Source: a virus
Strand: one strand, 5' to 3'
IMG/VR virus record: IMGVR_UViG_3300020473_002200
Location: 124,265 to 188,264 of that record
Length of the DNA stretch: 64,000 bases
Made by a program: the position numbers and the translations under genes. Of this stretch, positions 27,554 through 29,192 are shown one piece after another; the stretch's first letter is position 1; every line of letters starts with the position of its first letter. The notes below the pieces were generated by a model. It saw only the letters and a list, made by a program, of their open reading frames with translations, was not told the DNA's origin and ran no database searches.

Positions 27554-28245
27554 ACTTATTACGCGAGTACATAAGGGAGCTGCTGAAGGAAGAGGGTATT
27601 CTTGGAAAGTACGCTTGGCCTAGCGCTATCAAGGGACACCCAATGGCAGGTGAACCAGACACTGATGTGGAAGAAATGTTATATCAGCAGCTTCACAATC
27701 ACTTTGGCGCAATTTCTGGTCTGAGCGATGAAGCAGTAGCGATCATAAAACAAATTTTAGATTCAGGCGAGTATAGTAATACTTTTGTTCGGTGTACTTC
27801 CGGACAGATTCTTCGAGGGATGAGGCTTCCGGTTTCTTGGCTAGAACAATATGCTTTAGAGGCTTTGGGAGGTTTACCTACTGAGAGAAAAGACCCACTA
27901 AACTGGGGAGGTCCGGTCCCTATAAAGCCTATGACATATAGGTCGGAAGGGAAGTTTGGGAATGTTAGCTCATGGACACACATATGGAAAGAAGCCCGTA
28001 GGTTTACGACCCAATGGTCTGCTGATACCGTTCCTGTAATTCTCCACTCAGATTGTAGTTCTGGTTACTTTATGTATACTGATGGATTTAAGAGTTTTCA
28101 GGGTGGTAGATATAAAGACGAATTTGGAATTAAAAAGCTAAACCCAAACGCTCACGAAAAAGAGATTTTATTGTTTGGTGACTGTACAGTCACAGCGATT
28201 GAAATTAACGCTACAAAGCAAGAAATCGAGAAGTTGAAGTTATGA
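27550..28245 (+). CDS. Leader-tagged putative R-S-E ADP-ribosyltransferase (paralog of previous)
   Basis: [14 protein letters not shown]; ILRG, VSSWTH, HEKEI; shared G.LGK...EPDT..E..L...L.NH. Confidence 0.6.
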
Positions 28246-28263
28246 ACCTACTACGCGAGTACA
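28242..28263 (+). repeat. Orphan leader-repeat copy ATGAACCTACTACGCGAGTACA (22-bp direct repeat with 28602..28623)
   Basis: Identical 22-mer at both positions; the first copy reads into a stop after 15 codons. Confidence 0.9.
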
Positions 28264-28273
28264 GGAGGCTGCA

Positions 28274-28600
28274 GTGTCGACTTATATAACAGATGAATGC
28301 ATCAATTGCGGCGCGTGTGAGCCTGAATGTCCGAATGGGGCAATTTCAGAAGGCGATGAGATATACGTAATAAACCCTGATCTCTGTACAGAGTGCGTTG
28401 GCTTCCACGGAGATGAAGCGTGCCAGACAGTCTGCCCAGTTGAGTGCTGTATTCCAGACCCAAATAATAGAGAGCTAGAGCTGTCTTTGCTAAACAAGGC
28501 TATCGGCCTTCATCCATCTCAAGCTTTTCCTGCTAAAGATGATCTAGATGAAACTACTAGTCGATTTAGAAACCCTAACTGGATAAACGAGGGTCGATGA
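28274..28600 (+). CDS. 2[4Fe-4S] ferredoxin (YfhL-like)
   Basis: [12 protein letters not shown] and CTECVG....CQTVCP; GGAGG SD before the GTG start. Confidence 0.92.
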
Positions 28601-28601
28601 A

Positions 28602-29192
28602 ATGAACCTACTACGCGAGTACATAAGGCAACTGCTAACTGAATCCACTATTGATCCAAAGATCATGAGAATGATCGACAAGGCAGAGAAATATGGTCTT
28701 TTCGTGGACATCACATCTAACAGCGTAATCATCTACGACGGCCACAACACCGATAAACCGCGCGCTAAAATTCACTTTGAAAGAGATACATCTTTCGGCC
28801 CCTGCAGAGGTGGAGCTTACGTTACTTATGCAAAAGCAGAAGGTGGCTTTGGCCCATTAGCTTATGACGTTGCCATTGAGGCTACAGGCGGTCTGATGTC
28901 AGATCGAACTGAAGTTTCCCACGAAGCGATGGTCGTTTGGGATTACTACGCGAATAACAGGCCCGATGTCAAAGTAGACCAGCTGGACATAATGAAGGAC
29001 TACGGAGAAGAACAGTTAACTCCTGATGACAAGTCCGACGATTGCGATCAGGTACCGGCGTACGACAGGTACAAGTCAGACTGGCACAAGTCAGGCCTGT
29101 CAAAAAAGATAAGCAAGAGGGGTACGCCAGTCATAGATGAGCTTAGAGCGCGTTTCATGCTTTACGACGATAGGGAAGACCACACACTATGA
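28602..29192 (+). CDS. Leader-tagged GNAT-like protein
   Basis: [14 protein letters not shown]; GFGPLAYDVAIE...SDRTEVSHEAMVVW. Confidence 0.5.
   Translation: MNLLREYIRQLLTESTIDPKIMRMIDKAEKYGLFVDITSNSVIIYDGHNTDKPRAKIHFERDTSFGPCRGGAYVTYAKAEGGFGPLAYDVAIEATGGLMSDRTEVSHEAMVVWDYYANNRPDVKVDQLDIMKDYGEEQLTPDDKSDDCDQVPAYDRYKSDWHKSGLSKKISKRGTPVIDELRARFMLYDDREDHTL

Follow-up and report, generated by a model that had tools for sequence, protein, structure and literature searches.

Organization of the leader-bearing array

We analysed a 64,000-nucleotide (nt) stretch of viral DNA, hereafter termed the window, which comprises the last 64 kb of the 188-kb IMG/VR virus record IMGVR_UViG_3300020473_002200 (67% complete), and focused on a small ferredoxin gene situated in an array of genes that begin with a common short leader. 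The record codes for GroEL, DnaK, a sigma factor, ThyX, and RNA ligase, as well as a RecA-family recombinase (E value, 5e-66) and a gp21-type prohead protease (Peptidase_S77/PF03420; 88.5 bits; E value, 3.7e-26; G000:C1:68554-68997), the latter being 47-59% identical to the annotated gp21 homologs of Microcystis phage Mel-JY01, Flavobacterium phage immuto, and cyanomyoviruses. The source of the record is an uncultured marine T4-like phage.

The leader-bearing array (21250..32305, plus strand, as are all features given below) comprises ~15 translationally coupled genes carrying one of two leader types, with eleven type A starts (including the truncated one described below) and four type B starts. 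Neighbouring genes are joined by stop/start overlaps (ATGA, GTGA, or TAATG), and intergenic DNA is absent. The cargos that follow the leaders are unrelated and mostly orphan, with no Pfam or PHROG family common to them. The type A leader spans ~42 nt and codes for a 14-residue N-terminal peptide, in which the motifs I-R-E (residues 8-10) and L-x-E (residues 12-14) occur in most leaders and residue 10 varies (E, Q, G, A, or V). The type B leader, MKITKRQLRRIIRE and variants thereof, heads the genes at 21441, 21677, 22645, and 23462 of the same array.

Within this array, the cassette w27550 (27550..28245; 231 amino acids [aa]) ends in a TGA that overlaps the ATG of a 15-codon open reading frame (ORF; 28242..28289), whose own TAA overlaps codons 5-6 of the ferredoxin gene. 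This short ORF, hereafter termed the stub, is a truncated leader of ~32 nt lying in a different frame from the ferredoxin. Its first 22 nt (28242..28263) are followed by GGAGGCTGCA (28264..28273), the leader-derived remainder, which represents leader codons 9-12 after a 3-nt deletion and provides both the Shine-Dalgarno sequence and the spacer of the ferredoxin gene. The ferredoxin itself (28274..28600) is a leaderless 108-aa 2x[4Fe-4S] protein of the YfhL family with a GTG start (Pfam Fer4, NF033683). One base after its end, a second copy of the same 22 nt (28602..28623) opens the intact leader of the downstream cassette w28602 (28602..29192; 196 aa). A sequence-only reading of this DNA had described the first copy as an orphan leader running into the GGAGG of a ferredoxin gene without a leader and the second as the start of an intact gene; this description proved accurate.

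The stub and the ferredoxin recur as a unit in related phages

The ferredoxin is also held by phage arrays of five further contig lineages (L076-78, L079-81, L082, L069, and L088). In L076-78, L079-81, and L082, its GTG is preceded by an ATG-led leader remnant, as in the window. More specifically, the distance from ATG to GTG is 35 nt in L076-78, where the stub of L076 still reads MKLLREYIRGL, and 32 nt in the window, L079-81, and L082, whose stubs lack three bases and have drifted (alignment A2), the amino acid sequence of the leader being lost in the L079 stub. Across all four stub lineages (the window included), the ATG overlaps the upstream stop codon, the GTG is offset by 2 mod 3 despite the 3-nt indel, and the same TAA is used. 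A purine run (GGAGG, AGGGGG, AGGAG, or GGGGG) is positioned ~5-6 nt before the GTG in each of them, and it aligns with leader codons 9-10 (AGG GAG or AGG GGG). The GGAGG that precedes the ferredoxin in the window thus derives from leader codons 9-10.

For the ferredoxin cassette, the left edge of the BLAST blocks lies at the stub ATG (28242) or two bases before it, and the right edge lies 13-25 nt into the next leader (L076, L079, and L082). The gene located 3' of the ferredoxin varies: the window and L069 have w28602 there, L076 and L082 have a lipoprotein gene, and L079 has a gene of 141 aa. The stubs of L082 and the window share 18 nt although their downstream genes differ. An ortholog of w27550 (80% aa identity) lies two genes 5' of the stub-ferredoxin unit in L082. 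Since the stub and the ferredoxin recur together with diverged stubs and different neighbours, they form an old and mobile unit, in which the original join lay near the boundary of leader and cargo and was out of frame. The detail that is new at this locus is the reuse of an out-of-frame leader stub as the coupling ORF and ribosome-binding site of an untagged auxiliary gene.

The other two lineages carry the ferredoxin in different settings. L069 has the ferredoxin followed by w28602 and lacks the stub, and in the distant L088 the ferredoxin has its own ATG, spacer, and Shine-Dalgarno sequence and is flanked by two stubs, MNLLQIDL* on its 5' side and MSLLCEYIREKSLK* on its 3' side. Together with the loss of the leader amino acid sequence from the L079 stub, these arrangements are what would be expected if the stub were a neutral, decaying scar and the ferredoxin were translated independently of it. 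We consider this explanation rather unlikely, because all four stub lineages have retained the ATG and its overlap with the preceding stop codon, the same frame offset in spite of a 3-nt indel, the shared stop codon, and a purine run spaced as a Shine-Dalgarno sequence should be.

No RNA structure was detected at the stub/ferredoxin junction, the minimum free energy being -11.9 kcal/mol versus -16.0 kcal/mol for shuffled sequences (z, +1.5; i.e., less structured), and a consensus fold of the junction showed no meaningful covariation and no covarying helix.

The lipoprotein-like gene (MKLLRNLSYCLLALLVSCS...) found 3' of the ferredoxin (L076, 2710-3132; L082, 2425-2859) starts with 15 nt of leader DNA (ATGAAACTACTGCGC), apparently the 5' end of a leader joined in frame to a signal peptide.

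Cassettes are exchanged with leaders as their boundaries

Alignment of the array across related contigs, which had been proposed along with the sequence-only reading, revealed that gene order and content differ in nearly every contig and that blocks of similarity extend from a leader ATG into the next leader. For example, w28602 has orthologs (74-96% aa identity) whose surroundings are different in almost every related contig, and w26816, w27550, w30702, and w31499 are found in other orders among relatives. The left ends of high-scoring segment pairs fell within -2 to +1 of a start codon in 20 of 55 cases, and many such pairs end 13-50 nt into the next leader, so that the proposed role of the leader as a cassette boundary was borne out. 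Several arrangements were independently assembled in three samples each. Partial leaders joined to foreign sequence were also observed, the joints lying at nt 12, nt 15 (as in the lipoprotein gene), and ~nt 30-35.

The sequence-only reading had further likened the array to an integron that works without an integrase and can capture host genes. Leader-bounded exchange, the presence of a cellular gene, and the lack of a detectable integrase agree with that proposal: no match to a tyrosine integrase or IntI (PF00589) was obtained in the 188-kb record, itself 67% complete. The comparison with integrons breaks down over attC-like sites and a dedicated recombinase, there being no attC-type inverted repeats between cassettes, where genes abut with overlapping stop and start codons and the junction is unstructured. 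Promoter-like and terminator-like sites within 20300-33100 occurred at the level of shuffled sequences, and no PeSL-type elements (see below) were found there. Our data thus support the conclusion that cassettes bounded by leaders, one of them with a gene of cellular type, undergo exchange with no integrase involved. Crossovers within leaders are the simplest account of this pattern, because there is no intergenic DNA, neighbours are swapped repeatedly, and both genes stay intact; homologous recombination between leaders would therefore be the likeliest mechanism.

The leaders are also constrained at the level of their codons. In 54 canonical leaders, codons 3-8 are CTA, CTA, CGC, GAG, TAC, and ATA at frequencies of 54-94%, versus 9-37% of their codon families genome-wide (p, 1e-5 to 1e-26). 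The bias is confined to codons 3-9, and the Leu codons 11-12 are free. Synonymous mismatch over leader codons 3-9 was 0.34 between orthologs and 0.43 between leaders of unrelated cargos, compared with 0.645 expected from random codon draws, and linkage was found between neighbouring synonymous variants (CGC-GAG versus CGT-GAA; odds ratio, 9.3; p, 0.0016; no correction for relatedness). Hence, as had been supposed, the leader is constrained at the nucleotide level more than the protein requires, and some force keeps all leaders near one DNA consensus. In the comparison of leader and cargo codons that had been suggested along with it, the leader is slightly lower than the gene body in synonymous divergence between orthologs (0.33 versus 0.40) but hardly more conserved. 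Since the two values are so close, the codon bias could reflect selection on the mRNA rather than exchange, and such selection (e.g., for the Shine-Dalgarno-like AUAAGGGAG) cannot be separated here from population-wide exchange.

The same data bear on the possibility that leaders have no role in recombination, their nucleotide conservation serving translation or the mRNA (an open initiation region, AUAAGGGAG), while illegitimate recombination, duplication, and deletion filtered by selection produce the rearrangements. This explanation, which we regard as unlikely, is consistent with the synonymous rate of ortholog leaders being near that of the gene body and the bias being limited to codons 3-9, with the junction being less structured than shuffled controls, and with leaders being equally alike within and between genomes and at adjacent and distant positions (adjacent leaders, 19.76 of 24 matches; nonadjacent leaders, 19.65 of 24). 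However, it would require dozens of independent illegitimate events, each hitting a target of 1-4 nt so that both neighbours stay intact, whereas any crossover within the ~40 nt of a leader would suffice. It is also at odds with the partial-leader fusions, which mark the leader as a frequent junction, and with the linkage of the CGC-GAG and CGT-GAA variants. Concerted evolution of the leaders was rejected, since leaders of the same contig, or adjacent ones, are no more alike than others.

The 22-bp repeat is a common leader allele

The 22-mer ATGAACCTACTACGCGAGTACA is present exactly at 28242-28263 and 28602-28623, in agreement with the sequence-only reading. The other identities that it quoted hold as well: the leader at 26816..26841 is identical over 26 nt to that at 31499-31524, and the leader at 25692..25719 is identical over 28 nt to that at 29189-29216, with unrelated cargos in both cases. 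Counting up to three mismatches, the window contains nine copies of the 22-mer, versus none in 100 shuffled sequences. Among canonical leaders (54 leaders from 12 loci), 59 of 1,431 pairs (4.1%) are identical over the first 22 nt, and so are 3 of the 55 leader pairs of the window over at least 22 nt. ATGAACCTACTACGCGAGTACA is the second commonest leader allele and heads five canonical leaders with different cargos in four loci. Identity over 22 bp is thus far beyond chance for random DNA, but not for leaders.

These findings decide against the claim that the pair is the footprint of gene acquisition, i.e., that a recent capture event placed the ferredoxin in the leader of the gene at 28602 and duplicated a 22-bp target, the leader serving as an integron-like attachment site. 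Such a capture would explain why identical 22-bp copies bracket a single gene of cellular type and why, among the window leaders starting with ATG, an AAC second codon is found only at these two; the lack of a detectable integrase is also compatible with it. Nevertheless, the stub and the ferredoxin occur together in L076-78, L079-81, and L082 with diverged stubs and in front of other downstream leaders, and the L082 stub, which matches that of the window over 18 nt, is followed by the lipoprotein gene. In addition, four further cargos, in three contigs, are headed by the 22-mer, leader-derived sequence in the stub continues past nt 22 to ~nt 32 (with a 3-nt deletion), and the junction shows neither an intergenic attC-like element nor structure. 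The pair therefore does not behave as a target-site duplication, and a recent capture, largely refuted by these data, is improbable.

We also considered a programmed -1 frameshift that would fuse the stub leader to the ferredoxin and lead to its tagging and packaging. The ferredoxin frame is indeed always -1 relative to the stub and is open back through it (P0003 was called as a 136-aa ORF), but none of the four stub versions contains a slippery heptamer, no downstream structure is present, and a good Shine-Dalgarno sequence and GTG are available, which makes such an event very improbable. Finally, that the duplication is an assembly artefact can be dismissed, despite the repetitive nature of leaders and a break at 28263 in one unitig of run X4, given that a 1,210-base contig of run X5, from a different sample and study, spans 27903-29112 with zero differences, that contigs from runs X8 and X9 bridge each 22-bp copy, that 22 nt is shorter than the assembly k-mers, and that relatives show the same architecture. 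Leader-to-leader joints seen in run X9 (e.g., from 28235 to 29189) have 28 matching letters on their short side and were taken as cross-mapping from relatives, not as excision.

The ferredoxin is of a cellular type

The ferredoxin scored 106.1 bits against the NCBIfam equivalog NF033683 (cut-off, 86), and all eight Cys motif positions are intact (CxxCxxCxxxCP and CxxC...CxxxCP). It is 86-95% identical to its phage-borne relatives and 78-80% identical to homologs in cellular contexts (hydrolase-ferredoxin synteny). Thus, both the YfhL model and the cellular homologs confirm the earlier identification of a gene of cellular type. In a phylogenetic tree, the five phage copies fall on one side of a branch (SH-like approximate likelihood ratio test, 86) that also holds nine sequences of untested context, two of which (P0041 and P0025) were examined later; the tree is weakly resolved (109 columns) and is consistent with a single phage origin without demonstrating one. 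Since the YfhL ferredoxin family is so widespread in bacteria, transfer from cell to phage is the sensible direction. The ferredoxin matches obtained from IMG/VR (53-59% identity), most of them host genes located at the edges of prophages, were uninformative. No radical SAM partners for the ferredoxin were found in the 188-kb record. Being untagged, the ferredoxin probably stays and works in the infected cell rather than being packaged.

Genes related to iron-sulfur (Fe-S) metabolism were seen elsewhere among the related contigs, some of which code for IscA-like and IscU-like Fe-S assembly proteins (L009, 6050-6758, locus minus strand; L090, 799-1113). In L090-93, a ferredoxin 80% identical to that of the window lies directly after the 3' end of a tRNA and before an IscA-like gene. 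Fe-S metabolism genes seem to be recurrent in these marine phages.

Other observations on the array and its relatives

Each leader of the window provides the upstream gene with stop codons in one frame, namely, the TGA within ATGA or GTGA (nt 2-4) and the TAA within ACATAAG (nt 23-25), so that any cassette placed upstream in that frame is terminated there. The HD phosphohydrolase gene at 23462 carries a type B leader in the window and a type A leader in its L065/L066 homolog; leader types have thus been swapped on one cargo. A PAP2-type phosphatase gene (32308-32943) lacks a canonical leader in the window, whereas its homologs in L072 and L067 carry a canonical (VSLLREYIRGLLRE) and a degenerate leader, respectively; this pattern points to gain, loss, or decay of the leader on one cargo.

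An unlisted 57-aa ORF (MKLDVKTLITIVTFAATMGG...) with one hydrophobic segment is present at 22968-23141 and fills an apparent gap before the SNase-like gene at 23139; the same stretch lies directly 5' of the w28602 ortholog in L075 (9837-9997). Just 3' of the array, at 35179-36024, the window codes for a CysK/CysM-like pyridoxal phosphate-dependent enzyme (TIGR01136; 233 bits, below the cut-off of 344), homologs of which occupy the same place in L088.

A megablast search of 23000-33000 against cultured phages returned no match, nor did a tblastn search of the cargo w26816 against them. In Mel-JY01 and immuto, the cultured phages with the best-scoring gp21 homologs, matches to the leader pattern were at control level only. 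A search for a RegA-type translational repressor (PF01818) gave no match, but control genomes gave none either, which makes this negative uninformative.

Comparison with known systems

The T4 capsid-targeting sequence is MKTYQEFIAE (PMC8442874), and according to reviews (PMC3012670, PMC9026906, PMC12373910), nothing but this sequence is conserved among the diverse internal proteins that are injected. The window leader and MKTYQEFIAE agree in M-K, in E at position 6, in an aromatic residue at position 7, in I at position 8, and in E at position 10. The targeting leaders of T4-type loci end in an (L/I)-x-E motif that is cut by the prohead protease. The T-even internal-protein loci (IPI, IPII, and IPIII; hyperplastic region HPR1 of Repoila et al. 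1994) resemble the array in that unrelated cargos share a short N-terminal leader and in the combination of a gp21-family protease with a hypervariable locus. The differences are that these loci contain 1-3 genes and the array ~15; that the window leader has 14 residues with a second LLxE and is accompanied by a second leader type in the same array; and that the array lacks intergenic promoter or stem-loop elements and holds leaderless passengers behind stubs. From these likenesses, we infer that the leader may be a T4-type capsid-targeting propeptide, and they support the view that the array is a variant of the T-even internal-protein locus principle. In secondary accounts, Repoila et al. are reported to have described leader-mediated exchange in T-even internal-protein loci in 1994; recombination in those loci is the closest precedent for the cassette exchange observed here.

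Two other systems share features with the array. The PeSL mobile regulatory cassettes of T4-type phages (Arbiol et al. 2010, PMC2839356) are gene-boundary sequences for which a role in the modular shuffling of hyperplastic regions, via homologous recombination, has been proposed. Short conserved boundary sequences and shuffling proposed to proceed via homologous recombination are common to both, but PeSLs consist of an intergenic promoter and a stem-loop, whereas the shared sequence of the window is coding. Integrons likewise form a one-directional array of promoterless, exchangeable single-gene cassettes, some of them foreign; they differ in having the IntI integrase and attC sites, whereas the cassettes of the window array have their 5' coding ends in common and no DNA between genes. 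As for the ferredoxin, bacterial YfhL ferredoxins belong to the same family, and that of the window is distinguished by being phage-borne, by its GTG start, and by its leader-derived ribosome-binding site among tagged genes.

Proposed explanation

Taken together, we favour, with some reservation, the explanation that an old unit of truncated leader stub and ferredoxin constitutes one cassette of a leader-tagged array whose members are exchanged by recombination between leaders. The copy at 28242 would then be not a target duplication but a truncated leader, behind which a bacterial ferredoxin gene of the YfhL type took the place of the cargo long ago, with an out-of-frame join at ~leader nt 32-35. 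The stub would travel with the ferredoxin as one cassette, maintaining a stop/start overlap with any upstream gene and a short ORF that ends just inside the ferredoxin, and leader codons 9-10 would now act as the ferredoxin Shine-Dalgarno sequence. With the stub out of frame and a ribosome-binding site of its own, the ferredoxin would be made without a tag. Cassettes of leader plus cargo would be exchanged, lost, and reordered among related phages through leader-to-leader homologous recombination by the phage's own RecA/UvsX-type machinery, and a crossover anywhere in a leader would leave both flanking genes intact. The cassette structure is a direct observation from the alignments, and it is the mechanism of exchange that we infer.

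Several points weigh against this explanation. Crossover inside the leader is deduced from block boundaries, and its exact point cannot be placed because all partners share the leader sequence; some of the short metagenome contigs may be chimeric across leaders. Leader identity is 19.69 of 24 within a contig versus 19.72 of 24 between contigs, i.e., leaders have not been homogenised within genomes, and the synonymous divergence of ortholog leaders lies near that of the gene body. The stub is dispensable, as its absence from L069 attests, and conservation of its frame has been seen in four lineages only. The designation of the leader as a capsid-targeting propeptide rests on similarity.

A broader and more tentative proposal is that the leader core of ~20 nt (CTACTACGCGAGTACATAAGG) might be a universal adaptor throughout a clade of marine T4-like phages, combining a capsid tag, a translational-coupling start with a Shine-Dalgarno-like motif, and a patch of homology for cassette exchange without an integrase, and that truncated, out-of-frame stubs might be a regular route by which host genes, the ferredoxin among them, are adopted so as to be expressed but not packaged.

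The locus offers a base-pair view of how a large phage keeps a set of exchangeable tagged genes, the products of which are probably packaged, and of how a host metabolic gene can join a tagged locus untagged, a recycled stub providing it with both coupling and a ribosome-binding site. If leader-to-leader recombination holds true, the idea proposed in 1994 for the T-even internal-protein loci would reach beyond them to an abundant clade of uncultured marine phages. Candidate injected effectors and anti-defence proteins could then be found simply by their leader, which would also be a candidate tag for loading proteins into capsids.

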